Shown here: positions 3,822 through 61,749 of the stretch, in pieces
Position numbering within the stretch: position 1 is the first letter of the stretch
Layout of the letters: every line of letters begins with the position of its first letter
Source: Octopus vulgaris
Taxonomy: Eukaryota
DNA: 64,000 nt
Reading direction: 5' to 3'
Assembly (NCBI GenBank): GCA_951406725.2
Contig: OX597818.1
Location: 61,566,001-61,630,000 of the forward strand
Position numbers and translations under genes: made by a program
Notes under the pieces: model-generated
What the model saw: the letters and a program-made list of their open reading frames with translations, nothing else
Database searches by the model: none
Told to the model about the DNA's origin: nothing

Positions 3822-4555
3822 TTTTATTCTTTTACTTGTTTCAGTCATTTGATTGCAGCCATACTGGAGCACCACCTGTAGTTGAGCAAATTGAAACCTA
3901 CGACTTATTCTTTGTAAGGCTAGTACTTATTCTATCAGTCTCTTTTGCTGAACCGCTATGTTACAGGGATGTAGACACACCAGCACTAGTTGTCAAGCAA
4001 TGTTGGGGGGACAAACATACAAACACACACACACACACATATATATACACACACACACACATACATACACACACAGATATACACACAGACACACACATAT
4101 GCATACACATACACACACATATGCATACACATACACACACACACATATGTATATATATATATATATATATATGTCTGTAAATATAAGAGAGTTAACGTTA
4201 AATAGGTTAACTCTAGTGCTAGAAATAGCTCCTCCGGTATAATCGCCGATGATACCTCCACATAGAAATAGCACTACCCTCAACGTAAGGAAAGTGAAAT
4301 ACAACTAAAAAGTGGATTAATATTAGTTGTATTTCCCTTTCCTTACGTTGAGGGTAGTGCTATTTCTATGTGGAGGTATCGGCGGCGATTATACCGGAGG
4401 AGCTATTTCTAGCACTAGAGTTAACCTATTTAACGTTAACTCTCTTATATTTACGGATAAATATGTATTGTCTCCCTGGTTTATTGTGCTAGGTCGCTTG
4501 GTGTTAAAATAAGGGTATTATTAAATTAATATCTAATTTTTCACCCTCATTTTTG

Positions 4556-4609
<54 letters not shown>

Positions 4610-9260: not shown

Positions 9261-9373
9261 CTATATCATAAAGACATAGCTAAAATATTTTCTCAGACTC
9301 TACCTCAGCATGGCTATATTGTTTTATCTTGATCTTTCAGTTTGGTTGTTAGTTCATTCCCCCTTTTAATTTA

Positions 9374-9600
9374 CCTATTTCTTTATTACCCACAAGGGGC
9401 TAAACATAGAGGGGACAAACAAGGACAGACATAGGTATTAAGTCGATTACATCGACACCAGTGCATAACTGGTACTTAATTTATTGACCCCGAAAGGATG
9501 AAAGGCAAAGTCGACCTCGGTGGAATTTGAACTCAGAACATAAAGACAGACAAAATACCACTAAGCATTTCATCCAGCATGGTAACGTTTCTGCCACCTC
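9374..9600 (-). mobile_element. tRNA-derived SINE family B (Meta/Nin-like central domain)
   Basis: Reverse complement of GTCGACTTTGCCTTTCATCCTTTCGGGGTC...AAGTACCAG core; matches 9765-9993. Confidence 0.88.
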
Positions 9601-9764
9601 AGAAACAGAGTAGTTAATGTTTAGTTTGAATGATAGCAGGGTATTTGTACTACTGGGAATTTAGGGAGCATTCTGACAAGCAAGTAGCTGTAGAAAAGGT
9701 TTAGTAGACAAAATATTTGGTACAAGTTGTTGGATGTGAAACAGAATATAATTAAGTTAAAAAA

Positions 9765-9993
9765 GGCTGCGAGCTGGCAGAATCGTTAGCACGTTGGGTG
9801 AAATGCTTAACGGTATTTCATCTGTCACAACGTTCTGAGTTCAAATTCCACTGAGGTCGACTTTGCCTTTCATCCTTTCGGGGTCGATAAATAAAGTACC
9901 AGTTTCGCACTGGAGTCGTTGTAATTAACTTAATCCGTTTGTCTGTCCTTGTTTGCCCCCTCTATGTTTAGCCCCTTGTGGGCAATAAAGAAA
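9765..9993 (+). mobile_element. SINE family B
   Basis: Same core; target duplication ATATAATTAAGTT on both sides. Confidence 0.9.
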
Positions 9994-12900
9994 TATATAA
10001 TTAAGTTCAAATAAGCAGCAAAGATGATTGTAGTAGCAGCAAAGAAGTGTAAATAAATTTTCAGAGTGGGAAGTAATGTGTGTATAGGTGTGGTCAGTCA
10101 TGGTGGAGGAGTATATAAGCCAATGGTAGGGCCATTTTGGCACTGCCTATTTGGTGTCCCTGATGCCATACTGACCCCCACCCACGTTCTCTCTCCCAGC
10201 ATATTTCTCTATGTGTATGAAGAGAGAGAAAGTGTGTATTTTAATTCTGTTCAATTGATAAAGTGTAATGTCACTCCCTGTCCTTCTCTAGTTCTCTTTA
10301 TGGGTGGGAGCATATTTCTCCATACAGATAAGGAGAGAGAAAGTGTTTGTAATGTCTCTCTCTCTCTCTCTCTCTGTATCTCACTTTCTGTCCATATGTG
10401 TATGTTTCTAGGCAAACACTTGCCATGAAGTACTGCTGGAAAACATGCGGAATGTCCTCTCAGCCACACCAAATGATCACCCTCCAAACAGCTGCACCAA
10501 ATCATCTTACTCTAATGTAGGAGAATGCTCATGAGACAAATTCTCAAATAATGCTACCTGGGACATGTATATATATATATATATATACATATGATGGTTA
10601 AGTGGCCAGAATGTGTTAACTAATTTTAAGTGGTTCATATTTGTACATTTTAAAAGATATGCAATAGTTAAGATATGACATATTTGCAAGCTCTGAAACA
10701 GAATCCCTGCTTTTGTAGTGCAGTGTTGACTAGATACAAATATTGGATCACTATAAAATGTTATTTATTCTGTTTTACAAGATCTAACATTGATAGAAAA
10801 TATAATTTTAGTGACATGTTATTCATGGTTATGCAAATTTGTTTCCCTTAGGCTACAATATTTTTCTTCACAACTAGTAGAAAGTACAGTATAGATAAAA
10901 TTCACATGTTGAAACTAGGAAGATGTTCAGAGGTTATGGAATATTCTAAAATATTTGCTTTTTTAAATATTTTATTTTATTTAGCTTCCTTTATTGTATT
11001 TTTTTTTTTAATATTATAAAAATAAAGCATAAACAATTCAAGGCTACTATTAGAAAAGTTCCATGTACTGTTTGCCATCAACATTGAGAGAATTTTCAGA
11101 GGAATGGCTCTAACTTGAAATCAAAACTTAACCATAGATGCAGTTCTCCCAAAACTTATAAAAGTAACATCTAAGTCGATAGATATAGTCAAATATCACA
11201 CTTTAGTTAAAACACATTAATTGCTATCCAGATACTACTAACAATAAATTTATTAAAAGTTCATATTGGTGATTTGTGTCATTAGTATTGCAAATAACCA
11301 AACATGAAGCTATCCAAATGGATTCATATGTAACTGTCATTACTACAACTGGTAATAGGTTTCTTAGATACACTTCAAATAGAAACTATCTTTGCTTTCC
11401 GAGCTTTGAATAATCAAATACCAATAAACAAATAATAAACATGGCAATAGGCTAAATGTTCCCTCCTTTGCAGTCGACCATTCACAAACCAAAATGATTT
11501 CCAAATAATTGACCTATTTACCATAGAGACAAGTAAACCAACATTCATTCCTAATTTTACCCAAAATGAGACCAAATATTTTCAAAGGAACACATATGAA
11601 GACACTCACAGTTTATAAATTACTGCAATGGATATTTGGTTTGATCACATCAGTGGATTTGTCATAATGTTTCACCCTCTAATTGCTGTTTACAAATGTA
11701 TATTATTATATATAATTGCATTTATGTCTGAGCTAGATGAGTCTGTAATGCAGTACATCACTATACATCTTCATCTAATGTTATCTCTTCCATAAATCCC
11801 AATGTTGTTAAGTGTCTTCTATCAACTAGATTTTCTATCAATGTTTCTTTTTTTTTTTTTTTTTTTTTTTTGTTATGTTATGCTCTCATATTCATGATAT
11901 TACTAAACTGCTGATATCTCTAGTTGCATATCAAAGGTTAGTTTTGTTAATATTTAGAGAAGGAGAGAAAAAAAAAAAAAGGGAAAAATAGAAAAACAAG
12001 AATATACTTCAAGAGATGGAAAAAAAAATACGAAGTTGTGATGGTGGAAGTTTAGCAGATGCATGGCACACAGAGAGAGGGTCAAATAACTATGATAATC
12101 ACAGATAGTGCTCCTGATGTGCATTATGAAGAACAATACTGTGCACTCCAGCATGCACTGATTTAATGTAGGGGGGTGGAGTGTAGCATTTTTATAGGTT
12201 GCTTGTTTTTCAATTCCCAATCTATTTTTCAATTCCTGTAGGTTTTGGTGGTGGCCACAGCAGAAACAGGAAACATAGGGGCAGAAAATAACTCTTAACT
12301 AGTTTAACACACATTATATGAATCCCAGGACAGTGTTTGGGTCTAACGAGTGTATTGATGCTGCTGCTATTGTGTGAATGTGTATGTGTGCACACATGCT
12401 TGCAAGCTCTTTAAGGTGTATAGAATGAATGGAAAGAGAAGATTTTAAGATGTCATAATCACATTCATGAAACGAAGATATACCTAAGCATGATTGTACA
12501 TGTACTGAAAAGGACAGGTAGCAAATATCCAGGTGGTTTTTGGGAGTATTTTCATTTTATTGCATTGATTGATCTGCAAGAGCCATTTATGTGCATCAGT
12601 TGATGATGGGATTTCTGTTGTCTTAGATTCTTTATATCTGTGAGGAAATGTCTGCTATCCAGATAGAATTGGTATAGTCTTGAAGACTCCAAAATATTGT
12701 TCTTACACAAGTGTTACTTTTTTTGTGTTGAGCAAATTGTTGTACCTGTGGATGCTCAAAGTGTCCTTCATGAGTGTGTTTAGCTTTCTTAATTAGCTCT
12801 TCTTTGTGTGCTAATAAATGCTGTAAAGGTGGTCTATGTAATTCCTGGTGTTTTCACACTGTATGCATATCAATGTGAGTAGTATCACCATTTTGTAAGA

Positions 12901-14481: not shown

Positions 14482-14607
14482 TTAACCCTTTAGTGTTCAG
14501 ATTATTCAATCAAACATAGGTGTGACAGCCTGGATCTGGTCAGTTTGAACATAAAACAGATTAACTATTTTGGCCGGATATGGCCGGTTTAAATACTAAA
14601 GGGTTAA
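14482..14607. mobile_element. MITE family M1, internally deleted
   Basis: ttaaCCCTTTAGT...ACTAAAGGGttaa; shares both ends with 2621-2850. Confidence 0.85.
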
Positions 14608-17234: not shown

Positions 17235-17679
17235 GGTGTAGGAGTGGCTGTGTGGTAAGTAGCTTGCTTATGAACCACATGGTTCCAGGTTCAGTCCCAC
17301 TGCATGGCACGTTGGACAAGTGTCTTCTACTATAGCCTCGGGCTGACCAAAGCCTTGTGAGTGGATTTGGTAGACGGAAACTGAAAAAATCCGTCGTATA
17401 TATGTATATATATATATATATATGCATGTATACATATATATATATGTGTGTGTGTGTATATGTTTGTGTATCTGTGTTTGCTCCCCCCCCCTCCACATCG
17501 CTTGAAAAACGATGCTGGTGTATTTACGTCCCTGTAACTTAGCGGTTTGTCAAAAGAGACTGATAGAATAAGTACTAAGCTTACAAAGAATAAGACCTGG
17601 GGTCGATTTGCTCGACTAAAGGTGGTGCTCCAGCATGGCCACAGTCAAATGACTGAAACAAGTAAAAGAGTAAAAGAGT
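17235..17679 (+). mobile_element. SINE family A
   Basis: End-to-end similarity to other copies. Confidence 0.92.
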
Positions 17680-17985
17680 ATAGGGAATATCTTAGGATTC
17701 TGCAAAGTAAGCAGATAGAATTTTAGAATCATAGCAAAAGGTACAAGATTTGATGTAGGAGATCTAATTAGCATGCTGACCATGTAAGTCATTTCATTCA
17801 GAACCAAAGAGAACTACTTGTTGGGTTTCTCTGCATTCTTTAGCCAGATTATCTCTGCTGTTCTTAAAGCAATGCCTTGCTTACAATATCTCTATATATG
17901 ATGAATCAGAAATCGGAAACAACCTACCTATCCGAATATAAACATCACGGTGGTAGGGAGTAGACAGAAGTAAGGATTCTAAAAA

Positions 17986-18218: not shown

Positions 18219-18356
18219 AAATAAAGATTCCCTTGAAGGGAAAAAATATAGGGAAAATAAACACTACAGACTCCAAGAATTTGAACTACAACAGTCTTCT
18301 ACTGAAGAGCAGGTTTAATTTACACAAGTCCTTGAAGGCAGATTATTGCAATTGGC

Positions 18357-18581
18357 TTAACCCTTTAGCATTTAGATTGTTCTGTCAAAATTAATCCTTA
18401 TTTATTCACATTGTTTTGAATTAATCATGCATTATCTCGGAGCTTTATAATTTCAATGTAATTGTTTATTTTTTTAGTGACATGGCAAGCTAGGTGTGAG
18501 AAGCTGAGTGTGGCCAGTTTGAACATAAAACATGTAGAATATTAGGGTCTGTTAAGGCCAGTCTCCATGTTAAACATTTAA
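18357..18581. mobile_element. MITE family M1, degraded
   Basis: Starts ttaaCCCTTTAGC; internal GGCCAGTTTGAACATAAAAC shared with the 2621 copy. Confidence 0.75.
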
Positions 18582-22266: not shown

Positions 22267-22714
22267 ACTTTAGGTACTTCTATTTACAAAACTCTAGAAC
22301 ACATTATATTCTGGCCTTAGAATATAGATAGATCATCATCGTTCTACCAGGCACTTTCTCGTGCTCATACAGTCAAATGGAATTTGTTGAGAAAGATTTT
22401 CTACAGCCAGATGTCCTTCCTATTACCAAACAGGTTACTAATTCCCTAAGTTCAGAAATGTTTTCACAACAGACTGGAAATGAAGAACACTGCTTATGTG
22501 ACAGTGACAGCTGTTTACATGCATCACATAACAAGATAATACTAACACACACACACCCTCAACAAGCTTCTTTCAGTTTCCATATGCCAAATCCACTTAC
22601 AAGGCCTTAGTCAGCCCAGGACTATAGCAGAAGACACTTGCCCAATACGTTACACAGTGGGACTGACCATGAAACTATGTAATTGGAGAAATAACCAATT
22701 ACTGCATCATATGA

Positions 22715-23512
22715 CCTCAAGGTACTGTCACATTGCCTGCAGGACATGCAAGATAAGGTAGACCACCCGACAGGAACTTCACGGCAGGTGGGCTTGAGGA
22801 TCAGCCAGGAAAAGACAAAAGTGCAACGTATCAACAACAAGCAGGAAGAGCCAATCACAATCAAGGGGGCACCTGTGGGGGATATTAGTGAGTTTATCTA
22901 TCTTGGCAGCAAGTTCAGCAAATCAGGTGGATCAAACGAGGACATCACGGCAAGAAGCAAGAAGACTTGGCAAGCCTTCGCTACTTTTTCGCCAGTTTGG
23001 AAGTCCACTGCAATCTCAACTTGAACTAAACTCCACTTATTTAGTTCAAACGTAAAACCTGTGCTTTTTTATGGCTCTGAAACATGGAGAGCCACCTGCA
23101 GCAATTACAAGAAGATCCAGACTTTCATCAACAAATGTCTCCAGCAGATCCTCCACCTGAAGTGCCAAAACACCGACCTATGGGAAAGGTCCAACCAGGA
23201 GCCCATACATGTTCAGATTAGATGAAGGAAATGGAGATAGATCGAACACACACTATGGGAAGAACCCTCAAATGTGACATAACAAACACTTGACTGGAAC
23301 CTGCAGTGGGAAAAGGAAGTGCGGACGCCCGAAGCAGACATGGAAGCAGAGCATTTTGGACGAACTCAGGATCAGTGGCCTGACATGGGAAGCAGCCAAG
23401 AAACACGCCAATTAAAAGTAGAAGATACATACATACATACACACAAAAAGTAGAAAACAACTGTCAAGGCCCTATGCTCCACAAGGGGTCAAAAGGATTA
23501 AGAAGAAGAAGA
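22715..23512 (+). mobile_element. 5'-truncated RTE-clade LINE (RT C-terminal region, pseudogenised)
   Basis: Translates to VGLRISQEKTK, EFIYLGS, LFSSNVKPVLFYGSETW, KALCSTRGQKD*; (AAG)n tail; target duplication C(A/G)TCATATGA; stops and frameshifts. Confidence 0.92.
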
Positions 23513-31427: not shown

Positions 31428-31842
31428 ATAATCTCGTTTATAATCTCTTGGCAATAAGTAAATTTTGCATCATTACAGGGTGATTATAGACCACACCCAC
31501 ATATCATCCATAAAAATGGAAGACTACCTGAGCATGAATGTAAGGGTCACAGTTTGTTAGTGCAGCAAGCATCAACCCCCCAACATCTCCTGCCACTACA
31601 TACACAATCATCTCCAAACACAGACATATAGAGAACACCTACTAATACTACTACTTGCTGAAAATACTCTCTTCCCCACTTAGCTGGAATCTAATAAACA
31701 CAGAGGCAGACATAGCTGCATCAACAATTATTTCAGTAACCCCAAATAGTGTTGTGTCTGGGGAGAGACATTTTCTTTTTTGTGCCTTATAATGTAACAC
31801 ACTCACTGGTAAAATTTCTACTTATTTCTTATTTTCATTATC

Positions 31843-31879
31843 CTGAAATTTTCGTTGCGTCTTGCAACCTTTTCAATAG
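31843..31879 (-). ncRNA. Minimal type I hammerhead ribozyme motif, U3-A8 variant
   Basis: CTA-TTGAAAA-G-GTTGC AAGAC GCAAC-GAAA-ATTT-CAG; perfect 5-bp stem II; stem I is intact (CTA/TAG) only in the sister arm. Confidence 0.55.
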
Positions 31880-31939
31880 TCTTGACTATGGCCTTGCTGG
31901 AGCACTGCCTATAGTCGAGCAAATCAACCCCAGTCAAGA

Positions 31940-31976
31940 CTACTGAAAAGGTTGCAAGATACAATGAAAATTTTAG
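31940..31976 (+). ncRNA. Degenerate sister copy of the P2 hammerhead motif
   Basis: CTA-CTGAAAA-G-GTTGC AAGAT ACAAT-GAAA-ATTT-TAG; CpG-type decay in stem II. Confidence 0.45.
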
Positions 31977-32429
31977 GAAAATAAAATAAGAAATAAGTGG
32001 AAATTTTACCGGTGAGTGTGTTACATTATAAGGCACAAAAAGAAAATGACTCTCCCCAGACACAACAGAATATGCTTCAACACACGAACTCATATAAAGA
32101 ATCTTGCAAACCAAATCCAAAAACCCAAATAGTGTATTGTGATACAAACCCCTAACAAAGAAAGAACCAACAACTGCTGTGTTCTGATAGCGTTTGCAAT
32201 GCCCACTTCTGCTGTAGACATTGTAAATTCCATCTTCAAGTACACAGATATCATAACCATTTAACATCCATTTCAGCATGTGATAAATGATCTGGCAGGA
32301 GCTGGTAAGGCCGGGAGCCATACCAGGCTAAAGTAGAGGGAATGCCACATGTCCAGTCTCTCCACTGCAGCCTATGATTTCAGAGTATCCAGTAAGGTCT
32401 CCAGCTAGGAAAGTAGCAGCAGGATCATG

Positions 32430-32740
32430 ATCATCATTGTTAAGCATCCGTTTTCCATGCTAGCATGGGCTGGACGGTTCGACCGGGGTCTGGGAAGCCA
32501 GAAGGCTGCACTAGGCTCCAGTCTGATCTGGCAATGTTTCTACAGCTGGATGCTCTTCCTAACGCCAACCACTCCGTGAATGTAGTGGGTGCTTTTTACG
32601 TGCCACTGGCACAGGTGTCAGAGGAGGCTGGCAAACGGCCATGATCAGTTGGTACTTTTTACGGGTCACCAACACAGATGCCAGTCAGGTGGCGCTGGCA
32701 TCAGCCATGTTCGGATGGTGCTTTTTACGTGCGACCGGCT
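32430..32740 (-). mobile_element. Retroposon family C
   Basis: Reverse complement of core and internal repeats; inverted relative to 32945-33296. Confidence 0.88.
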
Positions 32741-32944
32741 TGCGTATTAATGATATAAATAGAAAAACAGATGCAGAGGTTGTGTCAAGTTAATTGGTCA
32801 ACAACCTGCGCATTATAGCATTGGTCAAACACAGCTGACCTTCAACTACACAACAAATACAGCAAGTGGCATACACAACTAGAAAAGAGATAAAAAGCAA
32901 CATTACGTATCACAGAATAATACATATCACGTCAACACCAGCAT

Positions 32945-33296
32945 CAAAATAAAAATCAAATGGAAATTGTAGTCATGATACCCATGCCTGTGGCACGTAA
33001 AAAGCACCATCCGAATGTGGCTGAAGCCAGCACCGCCTGACTGGTGTCCATGTCGGTGATATGTAAAAAGCACCAACCGACTGTGGCCATTTGCCAGCCT
33101 CCTGTAGCACGTAAAAAGCACCCACTACAATCACGGAGTGGTTGGTGTTAGGAAGGGCATCCAGCTGTAGAAACAATGCTAGATCAGACTGGAGCCTGGT
33201 GCAGCCTCCTGACCTCTCAGACCCCGGTCGAACCGTCCAACCCATGCTAGCATGGAAAACGGACGTTAAACGATGCCGATGATAATGATGATGATG
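32945..33296 (+). mobile_element. Retroposon family C
   Basis: Three GTAAAAAGCACC-type repeats, core, (GAT)n tail. Confidence 0.88.
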
Positions 33297-33859
33297 AGAA
33301 TGTCATCCTCAAAATGAAGGCATGGAATATATGGAACAACAGATCTATGAACACAAATGTTCAACTTGGTAACTACGAGTAGCAAGTTTGTATAATTGGA
33401 CATAACCTGGAGTAAAATATACAAATGTTACAAAACTTTCCCTGGAGTTAGGAAGAAGAGATGAAGTTTGTTTAAAAGTAAGAATTAGATTCAAGACTAA
33501 TTACCATTGCAAATTTATGTTAATAATGTAAAGGGAAGTAGATACCAAAATCAGTAGAATACCAAACAAAATTTTATACAGTATTTAATTAGCTTTCTTA
33601 ATATGCTCAGCCCGAATGACAGGAAGGCCAATCTTTCTATCCATCCCTTTGGGGCTAATAAAATAAGTACCAGTCATGAACTAGGGATCAAATCAGCACC
33701 ATTCATCACATGTAAGCTTAGTTCCCACATGAAATTCAACACTGGGCACAATATAGAAAAACTCTTCTTTTTTTTCTATCTTGATATTGAATCAAGGCAT
33801 TTTCTTATTTCAGTGAAAAAAAAAAAAAGTCATTAAATAATAAAATCAAACCTACTCAC

Positions 33860-33865
33860 CAGCAT
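33860..33865 (-). CDS. Candidate exon end with ATG CTG (ML) before a consensus donor
   Basis: CTG|GTGAGT donor; possible acceptor tttttgtcag ~80 nt upstream; all frames closed before the ATG. Confidence 0.22.
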
Positions 33866-36393
33866 GCTTTATTCTATTCCTAATTTGACATTAATGTTGC
33901 ACAAAATTTAATGAGAATGGATGATGCCTTATAATGATTTCTGACAAAAATTTAAAACCGATCTTTCAAAAACAACATTTTATGCCAGTTACTCTTATAC
34001 TAAGACGTTAGGACACTCCCTTAAAGGTTAAGATAAAGATGAAATCCATCAATCTATAGTGCAGAATACTAAATATATCTCAAAATCATTAATTTATTGA
34101 ACGAAGATTTATTCAACTTCAAAATAGTAAACAAAGTCTGGTACCCCAACCGCATCTCATATAAACTGATATGGTTTAACCCTTTTAATACTAATCTGCC
34201 CGACATGACCCCTGGTCCTATGGCACAGACTTATGTTTCCTTTGCTTTCTTGGCCTTATTTCCAAGGAGCACCAATTTTAAACGAAGAAAAATTTACGCT
34301 GATAAAATGTTACTTTAGATATTCACAGAATTTTTTCTTGTATTTGTTTCGGTCATTTGACTGTGACCATACTGGAGCACCGTCTTCAGTTGAGCAAATC
34401 GATCCCAGGACATATTCTTTGTAAGCCTAGTACTTATACTCTTTTGCCAAGCTGTTAAGTTACAGGACATAAGCACTCCAACATCAGTGTCAAGCGATGG
34501 TTACACACATATACATATACAATGGGCTTTCGACATCTAGTAAAAACCCATCCCCTTTTTTTTCCCTTTGTCTTGCTAGTTGCTTGGCAACTTCAGCTTC
34601 AGTCATCATCATCATCAACATTTAACATCCATTAAATGGGTTGAACGGTTTGACCAAAGCTGGCAAGATAGAAGGCTGTACTAGATTCCAACCACCCAGT
34701 ACGTTTATTGTAAAGAGGTAGGCATAAAGAAGGGCAACAACCATGGAAGCCATGCCAAAACTGACATCAGGGCCTGACACAACAGATCCTGTCACACCAT
34801 CCACACATGCCAGCATGGCAAACAGATGTTAACTGATGACGAGGATAAGCAAGTGGGCCTTTATAATCTTCCTCCTCTACAGTATAGACAAATTTAAAGA
34901 GAATGTGGCTGCTACTTCTAGCAAACCAAGTCACTGCCTAAGATCTCTTATATCGGATCATTTAAAATTCGGAGTATATTTTAGTTGTTTTGCCTTGGGT
35001 CAGCCATGAAGAAGTTGACCTATAATCAAAAATATGTCTCTTTTCATTTTAAGCACAAAATATGGGCTCAAGTCACCTCATAGTTGCAAGAAAGTTGGAA
35101 ATTCTTGCTAAAAAGAAAGAAGGAATATAATTCTATGCTTTTCGCCTCATCTTCTTTTGTACAAAATCAACCGGTTGCATAGGCGTTTCCATTTTTTTTT
35201 TTATGCCTAATGATAAATTTTTGGAATGCTTGGTTTCCAATTTGCTATGGCTTTTATTTTTCTTTCAAAGATCATGTATTAAAAATGAGGAAACCTTTCT
35301 TTATAAAAATTGCATAACTTCCAAAACATTATCAGCATCAACAGTTGGTGCACTTTTTTTTTTTTATATATATATATAGAAAGAATCTCAATTAGTTGAA
35401 GACTCTAGATTAAAAAAATAAAAATGTAAAAAAAAAAAAAAAAGATAAACAATAATGATAAATATATAGGATGAAGACAAAATACACGTAAGCATTTTTA
35501 CATTTACATTTATTTTCATCAAATATTCCTTTGCTGACAATTTCGATACTTGTTGACTGTACAAGTCTGAAATATGGAGATAATGGTTAATGAAATTCAG
35601 GAGGCACCATAGCTCATTCCAGTCTTTAAAGAGCATTTTGATATACAACGACTCAAGATGTGAGAAATATTTGGCTGATGCAAATCTTTATAATGTTAGA
35701 GCAGCTTAATGCAAAGCAAAGGAAATAAGTCAGAATGATACAGCAGTATGTTCCGATGATCGATGGATGCACATCATAAATGGAAGTGTTTGGAAAGTTT
35801 ACAGAAAGACAATGGCAAGATCAAAGGCGATATTTGAAAGCAATGATAGATCTCTGAGTAAAGAATTTCATGGAAGTGTTAGGTTTATTAGAATTATTGA
35901 GTGATGTTGGAATGTAAATGAGAAGACAATGTGTTGTTGGCTTTAGTAAAAGCTGTATTTGCACCAATGAACCTGGCAGAGTTGTTGACATAAGAGAACT
36001 ACAGTTCAAACAATTTGCAAGTAATTGACCAGTAACCAATATTTATAACTTTTATAAATGGAAAGAGGATAGTTTATGAAAGGCTCAGTTGAGAAATGAA
36101 TTGTTACAATAGATTTCTATTTATCTGTGTTGAATAAATTAGCCTTGAGATTATTAACACACATAAATATATAGTGATACTGCAAAAGAATTAACACATT
36201 TAAAGCTAAACTCTACGGTATATTTTTATAGCACTTCATTTCCATTTCTTTCTGTTATGAATATGAAGTTTTATGTTAAAACAGTTATTATTTCATCAGT
36301 TCCCAAAGTTTTAAGTGCATGGACACAAAACCATTATTGGACAGGTGTCAGGGTTATCACTAACTTTTCTGTACGATAATTTGAACCAATTAC

Positions 36394-36705
36394 GGAGATG
36401 TACTTGCATAACAAGTGACCTGATCTGAGATAGTGTGCTGAAACAAAAACAGTTGCAGCACAGAAAGTGTTAATAAGCCATATAAAAAAAAAAAGAAACA
36501 CACACAAAAACCGTTAGATTCATTTCAATATTTAAATTTGATTTGTCAAAATATTTTTCTGTGCTGCACGGAATTTTGTCATTGAACAGATCGTGGTTTT
36601 AAAGTGACAAAAATATTTTGATAGATTAAATTTAAATGTTCAAGTGAATCTAATGGCTTTTGTGTGTTTTTAAATGGTTTATAAACACCTTCCATGCTGC
36701 AATTG
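36394..36705. mobile_element. Asymmetric fold-back element, family P3 (putative Penelope-like pLTR derivative)
   Basis: Inverted arms ~36452-36557 and 36610-36704, extension 36394-36451, 16-bp target duplication AATTTGA(A/G)CCAA(T/A)TAC at 36378 and 36706; homologous to 61187-61382. Confidence 0.8.
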
Positions 36706-37220
36706 AATTTGAGCCAAATACTACGAAAGATGCTAAAACATTTAGAGACATGTTACTAACTGCAGTGAACCAATCCACAATGAAACTGCTGTTTATAGAC
36801 AAGGGTAACTAGATCTTTGTGATTATTGCTGGCATTAGAGTGTAATGCCAATAATAAGATACCAATCACTGACCCTTGGTACCCTGCACATCTGGTTATC
36901 GTCACTGTTAAAATTAGGAGTTTTAGCAGTTGTCCAGTTGCAAACAGGTGAAGGACATGGACAGAATATGGTTTAATAGTCAACTTATTACGATCTTAGA
37001 TTAAGAGGTTTAAGTTAAAGAAATAAGTATTGTTAACACATACACACATAGTGTTGGCATGAAAGGTAGAATATGTTGTTAAATGGTTTGAATTAATGAA
37101 ATGAAAAAAAAACCAAAAAACAAAAGCGTGTTACAATGTTATCATATAATAGTGGTTACACAAGGGTAAAGCCACAGATGCTATTTAGAACTCCTGCATA
37201 TTGGTTGGAGTATTTATTAA

Positions 37221-55699: not shown

Positions 55700-55899
55700 T
55701 CTACAGAATGATCAAGTCAATAAAGTTGTCGGTACATACTCCAGCGCAAAGACAATTATGTAACCCTAGGCACCGAACTAAACTAAATTAACTAACATAG
55801 AAAAGTAGATTTGATTACTTGTAACGTTTTCAACACAGGAAATAACACACTGGAGTCAAACGTAGTGTTTAATAAAATATATTAGGAATTAACTAATAT

Positions 55900-56284
55900 A
55901 AAATTATTAACCATTTTACAAATAATAACTCTGAGCACCCTTTCAAATTCCACCTGTCTAACACCCGTGGACATGTTTACAAAGTCAGAAAACAGTACAG
56001 CTCCCATGACTTTCGGAAACATTTTTTCACGCTGAGAGTTGCTGAAGCATGGAACAAACAGCCAGCATCAGTTGTTAGTTGTCGGAGCACTGCATCCTTC
56101 AAAACTTCCATGCTTCCTGAGATTTGCCAACACTACACCAGATTTTCTCCCCTCCATACACACGCAAGCATGTATCTGATTCATACACTGTTCACTTCCC
56201 AGACATTTGTACATTACTGCATCTGCCTTATTCCCACTTTTGACAAGTTGTAGTGCACCTGAGCACTGTATACAATAATTTCAT
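55900..56284 (+). mobile_element. CR1-clade LINE 3' end
   Basis: Translates to NTRGHVYKVRK...FRKHFFTLRVAEAWNKQPASVV...SFK, the typical CR1 ORF2 C-terminus, then a 3' UTR. Confidence 0.88.
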
Positions 56285-61186: not shown

Positions 61187-61382
61187 GCACAAAATTTTGT
61201 CAGTGAACAGGTTGCGGTCTCAAAGCGCGAAAATATTTTGACAAATTAAATTTAAATATTGAAGTGAATCTAATGGTTTTGCGTGTTCCTTAAATGGCTT
61301 ATAAACACCTTCCATGCTGCAATTGTTTTCGTTCCAGCACACGATTTCAGATCAAGTCACTCGCTATGCAAGTACATCTTCG
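61187..61382 (+). mobile_element. Solo copy of family P3
   Basis: Colinear with 36566-36704 and with the reverse complement of 36394-36451. Confidence 0.85.
61196..61245 (+). ncRNA. Minimal type I hammerhead ribozyme motif, G3-C8 variant
   Basis: TTTGTCA-GTGAACA-G-GTTGC GGTCTCAAA GCGC-GAAA-ATATTT-TGACAAA: perfect 7-bp stem I, stem II, GAAA, palindromic AATATT stem III, UUU triplet. Confidence 0.62.
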
Positions 61383-61749
61383 AAATGAAATAATGTTATT
61401 TTATTAGAAATATACCACCTGTTTTGTAAAAGGGTTAAATGATTGACATATTTAAGCCAGATGTAATGAACAAGGAACATAAATGAAGTAGTTATGCAAA
61501 AATGGACTTGTGTTATTACAGAAGTAGAGCAATTGAGTGATGTATATTCTTTTATATACACAAAAGAAATGATTTTGTACCTGCTTAATATGCGAGACAG
61601 ATACAGGTTCAAAAATTAAAAATCAGATTCCTATATTTCAGCATAAGAGAGCAATGGGCTTACATAATCAATACAAAATGCAACACACATTGCAAACAGA
61701 ACATCTATACCTTCTAAGATTTATTTTTGCCTTTACTAAATCTTTGCTT

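Follow-up and report, generated by a model that had tools for sequence, protein, structure and literature searches.

A window of 64,000 nucleotides of Octopus vulgaris DNA (assembly GCA_951406725.2, contig OX597818.1, positions 61,566,001 to 61,630,000; all coordinates below are counted from the first base of this stretch) contains three short asymmetric palindromes, here called P1, P2 and P3. P2 and P3 are very probably stub insertions of two related families of endonuclease-bearing Penelope-like elements (PLEs), in which the terminal repeats stand head to head and one arm carries a 56-bp tail that continues the reading frame. The window is AT-rich, non-coding DNA dense in copies of a repeat that we take to be a short interspersed nuclear element (SINE). 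An earlier note on this DNA had argued that the palindromes are retro-insertions of Penelope-like type and not miniature inverted-repeat transposable elements (MITEs); this is borne out by an empty site for P2, by hammerhead-like motifs in the P2 and P3 families and by the link of the P3 family to frames with a reverse transcriptase and a putative GIY-YIG endonuclease.

Structure of the palindromes and their target sites

All three palindromes proved genuine and, as had been described, one arm is longer than the other in each of them. The arms of P1 (4163-4308 and 4323-4468) are identical at 139/146 positions, enclose a loop of 14 nt and are followed by an extension of 90 bp (4469-4558). In P2 the arms (31750-31887 and 31932-32067) are identical at 127/138 positions around a loop of 44 nt and the extension is 56 bp long (32068-32123). 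The aligned arms of P3 (36444-36558 and 36609-36711) agree at 86/115 positions, and the alignment places the true mirror ends at about 36450 and about 36705, leaving an extension of 56 bp (36394-36449). The three palindromes were said to have no sequence in common, which is correct at the DNA level (best local scores 17-24) but not for P2 and P3 when they are compared as protein.

An exact 12-bp direct repeat flanks P2 at 31741-31752 and 32124-32135; 3 bp of the left copy belong also to the end of the arm. One contig of 4093 nt from a single run with another species label (X18) joins position 31740 directly to 32124, lacks the 383 bp of P2 and has kept a single copy of the repeat. This empty site identifies the repeat as a true target-site duplication; a precise later deletion is formally possible. 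For P3 a repeat of 16 bp had been noted, and it is present at 36378-36393 and 36706-36721 but inexact (14/16); it is a likely target-site duplication. Among 20,000 random pairs of window positions with 5 bp of slack per side, an exact 12-mer was found in 0.20% and a match of at least 14/16 in 0.25%. Target duplications of variable length are thus indicated for P2 by the empty site and for P3 by the 14/16 repeat, and an inverted terminal-repeat copy with a tail on one arm and two outer ends is found for P2 in sequence reads and for P3 through a further copy in the window.

Outer ends and centres of the P2 family in reads

The short arm of P2 (31750-31887, minus strand) is a copy of the terminal repeat that reads outwards; it has a hammerhead-like motif with a U3-A8 core at 31876-31870 and a predicted cut at 31846, and a start codon at 31771 whose frame ends after about seven codons. 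The long arm (31932-32067, plus strand) has a core at 31943-31949 in which C3 faces A8 unpaired, a predicted cut after 31973 and a start codon at 32046, with which the 56-bp tail (32068-32123, plus strand) is in frame.

Read contigs from four DNA-type runs were aligned to P2 only. The numbers of aligned contigs were 30,507 (run X1), 29,116, 13,150 and 10,303, which include SINE contigs on the loop, so that contig depth on P2 is not copy number. In the rows listed, family sequence gave way to unrelated AT-rich flanks at 32071-73 in three of the four runs and at 32123-24 in all four. These two positions, at which copies of the family end, are its short and long outer ends. Coverage by the family was concentrated on the terminal 190 bp and fell off away from the outer end.

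The loop of P2 (31888-31931) is a 44-nt piece of the local SINE family (50/58 identical to the SINE at 17520-17680), with 6 nt and 2 nt of shared sequence at its joints. It was not seen in the other listed copies, which carry different letters behind 31887. The shared joint letters, together with the different continuation of the other copies, indicate that the loop arose by a template jump. A chimera of SINE and PLE as the identity of the whole family was considered and dropped, since the other copies run on with non-SINE letters.

Thirteen of the 15 listed joints are skips, which were taken as the centres of other fold-back copies of the P2 family. The two remaining joints, between opposite strands, and loose ends at 31846 and 31983 were set aside as artefacts of aligning single-arm copies to two diverged arms. 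One arm reaches 31887 in eight of the 13 skips, and the other begins at positions ranging from 31938 to 32027. Seven of the eight joints at 31887 proceed with the same two bases and three of the eight add a C, as the copying of a cap would be expected to do. That the centres vary among copies suggests that the palindrome is likely built at insertion and not copied as a unit.

The alternative is a dedicated non-autonomous class, in which PLE enzymes would re-insert a transcript of the whole palindrome in one piece; this is the strongest form of the reading in the earlier note. The great abundance of the family, the concentration of coverage on the terminal 190 bp and the common 5' end of many copies near 31887 (8/13 listed skips) are all compatible with such copying, and non-autonomous derivatives of PLEs have been published (PMC8557442; bioRxiv 2026.07.22.740005, in the portions available). 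We nevertheless regard it as improbable: the second arm starts at varied positions in the 13 listed centres, the SINE loop of P2 is unshared in the listed rows, the arms contain the first codons of a gene, and the P3 family occurs also as a single arm (see below). A short single-arm template may have been the source.

A MITE or a fold-back DNA transposon would also account for long inverted arms, and P1 does lie within TA repeats. For P2 and P3 this origin is scarcely credible, since the two outer ends lie about 51 nt apart, the duplications measure 12 and 16 bp, coverage falls from the outer end, a templated piece of SINE occupies the centre of P2 and protein links lead to a reverse transcriptase-GIY-YIG frame. 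Symmetric fixed ends with a fixed short duplication were not seen. Nor was any transposase family, or any reverse transcriptase or GIY-YIG family, found in the 141 window frames scanned, which comprised 139 of the 156 listed frames (17 inside SINE copies were omitted) and two frames of P1.

P3 and a single-arm copy of its family

The long arm of P3 with its 56-bp tail (36394-36564, minus strand; tail 36394-36449) has a start codon at 36481 and matches residues 1-31 of P0002, a predicted protein of O. sinensis, with one stop in the frame (tblastn, E = 1e-8); it lacks 37 nt that contain the hammerhead core. The short arm (36566-36705, plus strand) has a decayed hammerhead with its core at 36582-36588, a predicted cut after 36618 and G12 changed to A at 36609, and its frame, with the start codon at 36674, ends after codon 10.

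A third copy of the family is unpaired (61187-61386, plus strand). It has a G3-C8 core at 61203-61209, a predicted cut after 61238 and an open frame from 61294 to 61386 that runs to codon 31; a clear flanking duplication was not found around 61187-61386. Arm and extension are held in one piece in this copy, and the extension is therefore element sequence. The right arm of P3 and this copy start at the identical base.

The left arm of P3 had been thought to stop within a few nucleotides of the predicted cleavage site. Instead it continues towards the axis for 10 nt beyond the predicted cut. There follows, around a single central base, a mirror match to seven of the first eight right-arm bases, as happens in 0.9% of random zones. 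The simplest reading of the P3 centre is either a fold-back at the 5' end of the family with 37 nt lost or a short snap-back, and with either the template would have been uncut.

Hammerhead-like motifs

A ribozyme at the axis had been claimed for all three palindromes. Hammerhead-like motifs are present in the left arm of P2 and in the unpaired copy of the P3 family, whereas none was found in P1 and that of the right arm of P3 is decayed. An Rfam search gave no hammerhead among 53 matches in the window. With a tolerant score modelled on the minimal hammerhead of PMC4209133, the motif at 61203 in the unpaired copy reached 25.4 bits and the left arm of P2 20.7 bits, and the best of 60 shuffles reached 17.6 bits. 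The right arm of P2 (11.5 bits) is not significant alone, as 0.68 motifs of at least 11 bits are expected per window, and the right arm of P3 and P1 scored below 4 bits. Both high-scoring motifs have an extra base after A9, the pair G10.1-C11.1 and a palindromic helix III. The U3-A8 pair occurs in the left arm of P2, and U3 also in one other copy in the reads; the G3-C8 pair occurs in the unpaired copy, and the right arm of P3 has the same C8 but a T at position 3. All hammerhead-like copies in the window are decayed.

A natural U3-A8 hammerhead has been published (PMC3088659), and the pair is known from PLEs of Schistosoma. In the accounts available, G3-C8 is described only as an engineered partial rescue (PMC11167929, PMC8495972, PMC3884650). 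No report of a natural G3-C8 hammerhead was found in the mostly open literature; the supplements of PMC4209133 and bioRxiv 2026.07.22.740005 may list some.

It was also suggested that breakpoints of the arms would cluster at the cleavage site, as would be expected if hammerhead cleavage made the 5' end of the RNA and so fixed the inversion breakpoints. There is a little that points this way: continuous homology of the left arm of P3 is lost 10 nt from the predicted cut, and three listed joints of the P2 family begin 9-10 nt after it (the intervening letters are not given for two of them), where an indel of 1 nt could shift the alignments. Against this, sequence 5' of the cut is retained in all four P2 and P3 arms and in the unpaired copy, and the 13 listed skips all lie more than 5 nt from the predicted cut at 31973/74. 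Behind the loose ends at 31846 the family sequence runs on, and we attribute these ends to the way in which mutations peculiar to P2 affect the alignment. Cleavage was moreover unnecessary in vitro in the experiments described in PMC11167929. Breakpoints set by cleavage are therefore very improbable.

The probable start of a Penelope-like gene in the arms

The palindromes had been described as non-coding. Clearly in P3, and probably in P2, the outer part of the arm together with the extension instead holds the opening codons of the element's gene. In every P2 and P3 arm a start codon follows the predicted cut at a distance of 55-72 nt (72 nt in P2, 55 nt in the P3 family). A profile of the arm peptides had a single match among 1.84 billion proteins, P0001 of Octopus bimaculoides (E = 5e-8), and P0002 is identical to the unpaired copy at 28/31 residues. 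The match to P0002 ends after residue 31 in both the P3 long arm and the unpaired copy, and after residue 10 in the P3 short arm. A third protein, P0003 of O. vulgaris, overlaps P0001 and P0002 at about 80% and has DK and YGL.K.HK motifs 71 residues apart, which by eye resemble the PLE rows of Fig. S7 in PMC8557442.

A metagenome scan with the P0003 motif gave 42 loci, six of which match P0003 by tblastn. One of them, L035, can be aligned with P0003 along 255 residues (37%, E = 3e-54). It also matches the N-terminal region of P0001 and P0002 twice, in a partial tandem, and this match does not depend on the scan motif. Its layout is a stop, 71 nt, a hammerhead motif with C3-G8, 65 nt from the cut and then a start codon. 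Another relative, L023, ends in a hammerhead-like motif with U3-A8 (position 9 deviates), followed by (TA)n. A profile of four relative frames matched a solved reverse transcriptase (E = 1.2e-4), and a CxxC linker precedes the putative GIY-YIG domain in three of three relatives; in the accounts available such a linker is described for Neptune and Nematis but not for Poseidon. Indirectly, through P0002, P0003 and L035, L023 and L003, the P3 family would thus appear to derive from an element with a PLE-type reverse transcriptase. The expected link of the P3 family to frames with reverse transcriptase and a putative GIY-YIG endonuclease was found along the chain P0002, P0003, L035, which shares the layout of a hammerhead followed by a start codon.

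Comparison of the coding stretches of P2 and the P3 family gave identity at 17, 18 and 8 of 26 sites at codon positions 1, 2 and 3, respectively (Fisher p = 0.0035, best of 100 registers), and the P2 peptide is identical to P0002 at 11/24 residues in register. We consider with moderate confidence that the P2 frame is the start of a paralogous gene, which is the likely interpretation of these comparisons.

Other searches around these proteins were less informative. A protein search with the P3 left-arm frame gave no candidate, probes for exact DNA matches had no hit (0 loci) in collections of metagenomes, viruses and prokaryotes, and no relatives of P0003 were found in viral contigs. P0003 matched no Pfam family; an atlas search was uninformative for P0001 and for P0003 led to unnamed eukaryotic DUF8422 clusters, a family on which no literature was found, and its single-sequence structure model was unusable (predicted local distance difference test, pLDDT, 34.5). 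The model of L023 was weak (52.1), and its fold search, with telomerases at four of the six first ranks, a DNA polymerase first and template-modelling scores of at most 0.26, was not used as evidence. Membership in the Hydra clade, suggested by an RWR motif, was considered and dropped, as the Hydra proteins start just before RWR and P0002 and P0003 have a long N-terminus.

Two observations on these sequences stand by themselves. The 1632-residue PLE frame of L035 contains an in-frame Ulp1-like protease segment (L035:4209-4736, minus strand) upstream of the reverse transcriptase and between long low-complexity repeats (Pfam Peptidase_C48, E = 7e-4, just short of the cut-off; PDB 6dg4, E = 0.001). 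In the gene model of P0002 some 225 residues from the PLE frame are followed by or joined to a methyltransferase segment, so that this model is probably a chimera.

The P1 palindrome

P1 with its 90-bp extension (4163-4558, family unassigned) interrupts the (TA)n tract of one SINE, and a target duplication can therefore not be read. It gave no match to P0001-P0004, no Pfam match of its two open frames and no hammerhead, and no second copy was found within the window. Six short P1 probes were all absent from the files for Naiad, Chlamys and Hydra in PMC8557442, which is a weak test.

P1 probably has the same origin as P2 and P3 and represents a third, (TA)n-targeting family, as suggested solely by its shape, its target and its last five bases. 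That it is instead a fold-back of unrelated origin, or part of some other element, is unlikely but far from negligible. This alternative draws on the lack of hammerhead, protein match, Pfam match and second window copy and on the longer extension of 90 bp, and it has to be set against the same asymmetric shape, against the last five bases of its long end, ahead of (TA)n, which recur in the P2 family and in the unpaired P3-family copy, and against the hammerhead-less (TA)n-targeting PLEs described in Octopus in PMC8557442. The same five terminal bases before AT-rich DNA were observed at 4554-4558, at 61382-61386 and, for the P2 family, in reads behind 32124; the long end of P3 differs from them by one base and overlaps its duplication.

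Other repeats in the window

Inverted arrangements of other repeats were also observed. An inverted pair of about 95% identity lies 1.2 kb apart at 1184-1360 and 2531-2933, and its right copy (2531-2933) is split at about 2622-2850 by a short element with TTAA-bounded inverted ends, which has relatives at 18356-18574 and 14519-14607. At 32424-33289 and 9366-10004 short repeats form two further inverted pairs, closely spaced and of 82% and 87% identity. A broken frame resembling a long interspersed nuclear element at 22695-23222 has weak DUF6451 matches across a stop, and we presume it to be RTE. The 118-codon frame at 55897-56253 has no Pfam match; we take it to resemble the C-terminus of CR1/L2.

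Discussion

The stub insertions P2 and P3 could be explained as follows. The GIY-YIG endonuclease of the element would nick AT-rich DNA on both strands 12-16 bp apart, and priming by the reverse transcriptase would take place within the first 30 codons, either at codon 9-10 or at codon 28-31. The template would be RNA uncut by the hammerhead, and copying would end about 13-17 nt upstream of the core, which would make each copy 140-200 nt long. A second copy, made from the other nick or by self-priming, would be joined to the first at the 5' ends to give an asymmetric palindrome; in P2 this would follow a template jump onto a SINE. Each insertion would thus build its palindrome as a by-product.

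A number of points weigh against this interpretation. The link to reverse transcriptase and GIY-YIG runs through partial gene models and through relatives of other hosts that are 28-50% identical, and no full-length octopus element was seen. The 42 metagenome loci were selected by the P0003 motif, so the motif itself is no evidence, and whole relative frames matched 0 Pfam families. GIY-YIG was the top Pfam match for the C-termini of the relatives in three of three cases (E = 0.0011, 0.025 and 0.11), with all three values short of the cut-off. The similarity of the P2 peptide is modest, with a raw score of 36 (shuffle p = 0.003) against up to 41 for unrelated frames of the window; no protein that belongs to the P2 family itself was found. 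Two strict hammerhead descriptors gave 0 matches, so that no single copy passes them, the tolerant score was devised after the motifs had been seen, and folding energies were no better than those of shuffles (z from -1.7 to +0.4). The evidence from reads for P2 consists of the 15 of 549 joints, 12 of 473 rows of letters between joints and 24 of 1,498 loose-end rows that were listed. P1, with neither a protein nor a ribozyme marker, is not counted as a PLE member.

The palindromes had further been proposed as a distinct class. The combination of inverted repeat, tail and variable duplication is, however, already a published structure of PLEs (PMC3846280, PMC8557442, in the portions available). 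In rotifer PLEs, according to PMC3846280, one arm of the inverted repeats bears a tail, repeat plus tail take up the first 12-22 codons and the duplications are 8-10 bp. The octopus stubs share with the inverted pseudo-long terminal repeat plus tail insertions of endonuclease-bearing PLEs (Arkhipova 2013, PMC3846280; Craig 2021, PMC8557442) the head-to-head repeats, the tail carried by one arm, the presence of the gene's opening codons in repeat and tail, the variable duplications and small palindromes or microhomology at the centre. They differ from them as described there in having no gene body between the repeats, in the tail (51-61 versus 30-40 nt) and in the duplications (12 and 16 versus 8-10 bp).

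Minimal hammerheads on opposite strands 100-700 bp apart have been noted before (PMC4209133). With the minimal type I PLE hammerheads described in that work (Cervera and de la Pena 2014) the octopus motifs have in common the extra base after A9, the G10.1-C11.1 pair, the palindromic helix III, the close opposite-strand pairs and the U3-A8 variant, seen there in S. mansoni. They differ in that the octopus copies are all decayed and one P3-family copy has G3-C8. The Poseidon element of Anolis, PAc, is reported to cut AT-rich DNA on both strands, with two internal priming sites that define the tail (PMC11167929), and uncut RNA is its main substrate (Frangieh 2024, PMC11167929). Two in-frame ends that define a tail about 90-150 nt downstream of the cut, AT-rich targets and a probably uncut template are shared with PAc as reported; the PAc frame starts within the hammerhead, whereas in octopus 55-72 nt separate the cut from the start of the frame. 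Animal non-LTR retrozymes (bioRxiv 2026.07.22.740005) are likewise short, hammerhead-bearing and PLE-derived, but as described they form direct tandem arrays, and the octopus copies within the window are inverted pairs or a single arm. Penelope-like families have been listed for O. vulgaris (PMC13282606).

The architecture of P2 and P3 is thus already known, and the small additions concern the core pairs, U3-A8 and G3-C8, and a common 5' end a short way upstream of the core. It is possible, although we lean against it, that these belong to an abundant octopus PLE lineage in which the core pair is swapped (U3-A8 in P2, G3-C8 in P3, C3-G8 in L035) and stubs arise from uncut capped RNA starting 13-17 nt upstream of the core. 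Hints of this are the recurrent bases behind 31887 in the listed joints and the first base common to the right arm of P3 and the unpaired copy. If this were true, P3 would be a natural high-copy G3-C8 hammerhead and the axis of the palindrome would mark the transcription start. Should consensus and cleavage hold, a natural G3-C8 family would extend the known variation of ribozymes a little.

For annotators these findings suggest that such palindromes should be treated as ends of PLEs; they also give rise to spurious short gene models, which should be borne in mind. For one family, that of P2, both outer ends and the varied centres are visible in tens of thousands of contigs, which permits a genome-wide test of how the inversions and tails of PLEs form and whether the hammerhead cut or the start of the RNA sets the 5' end.

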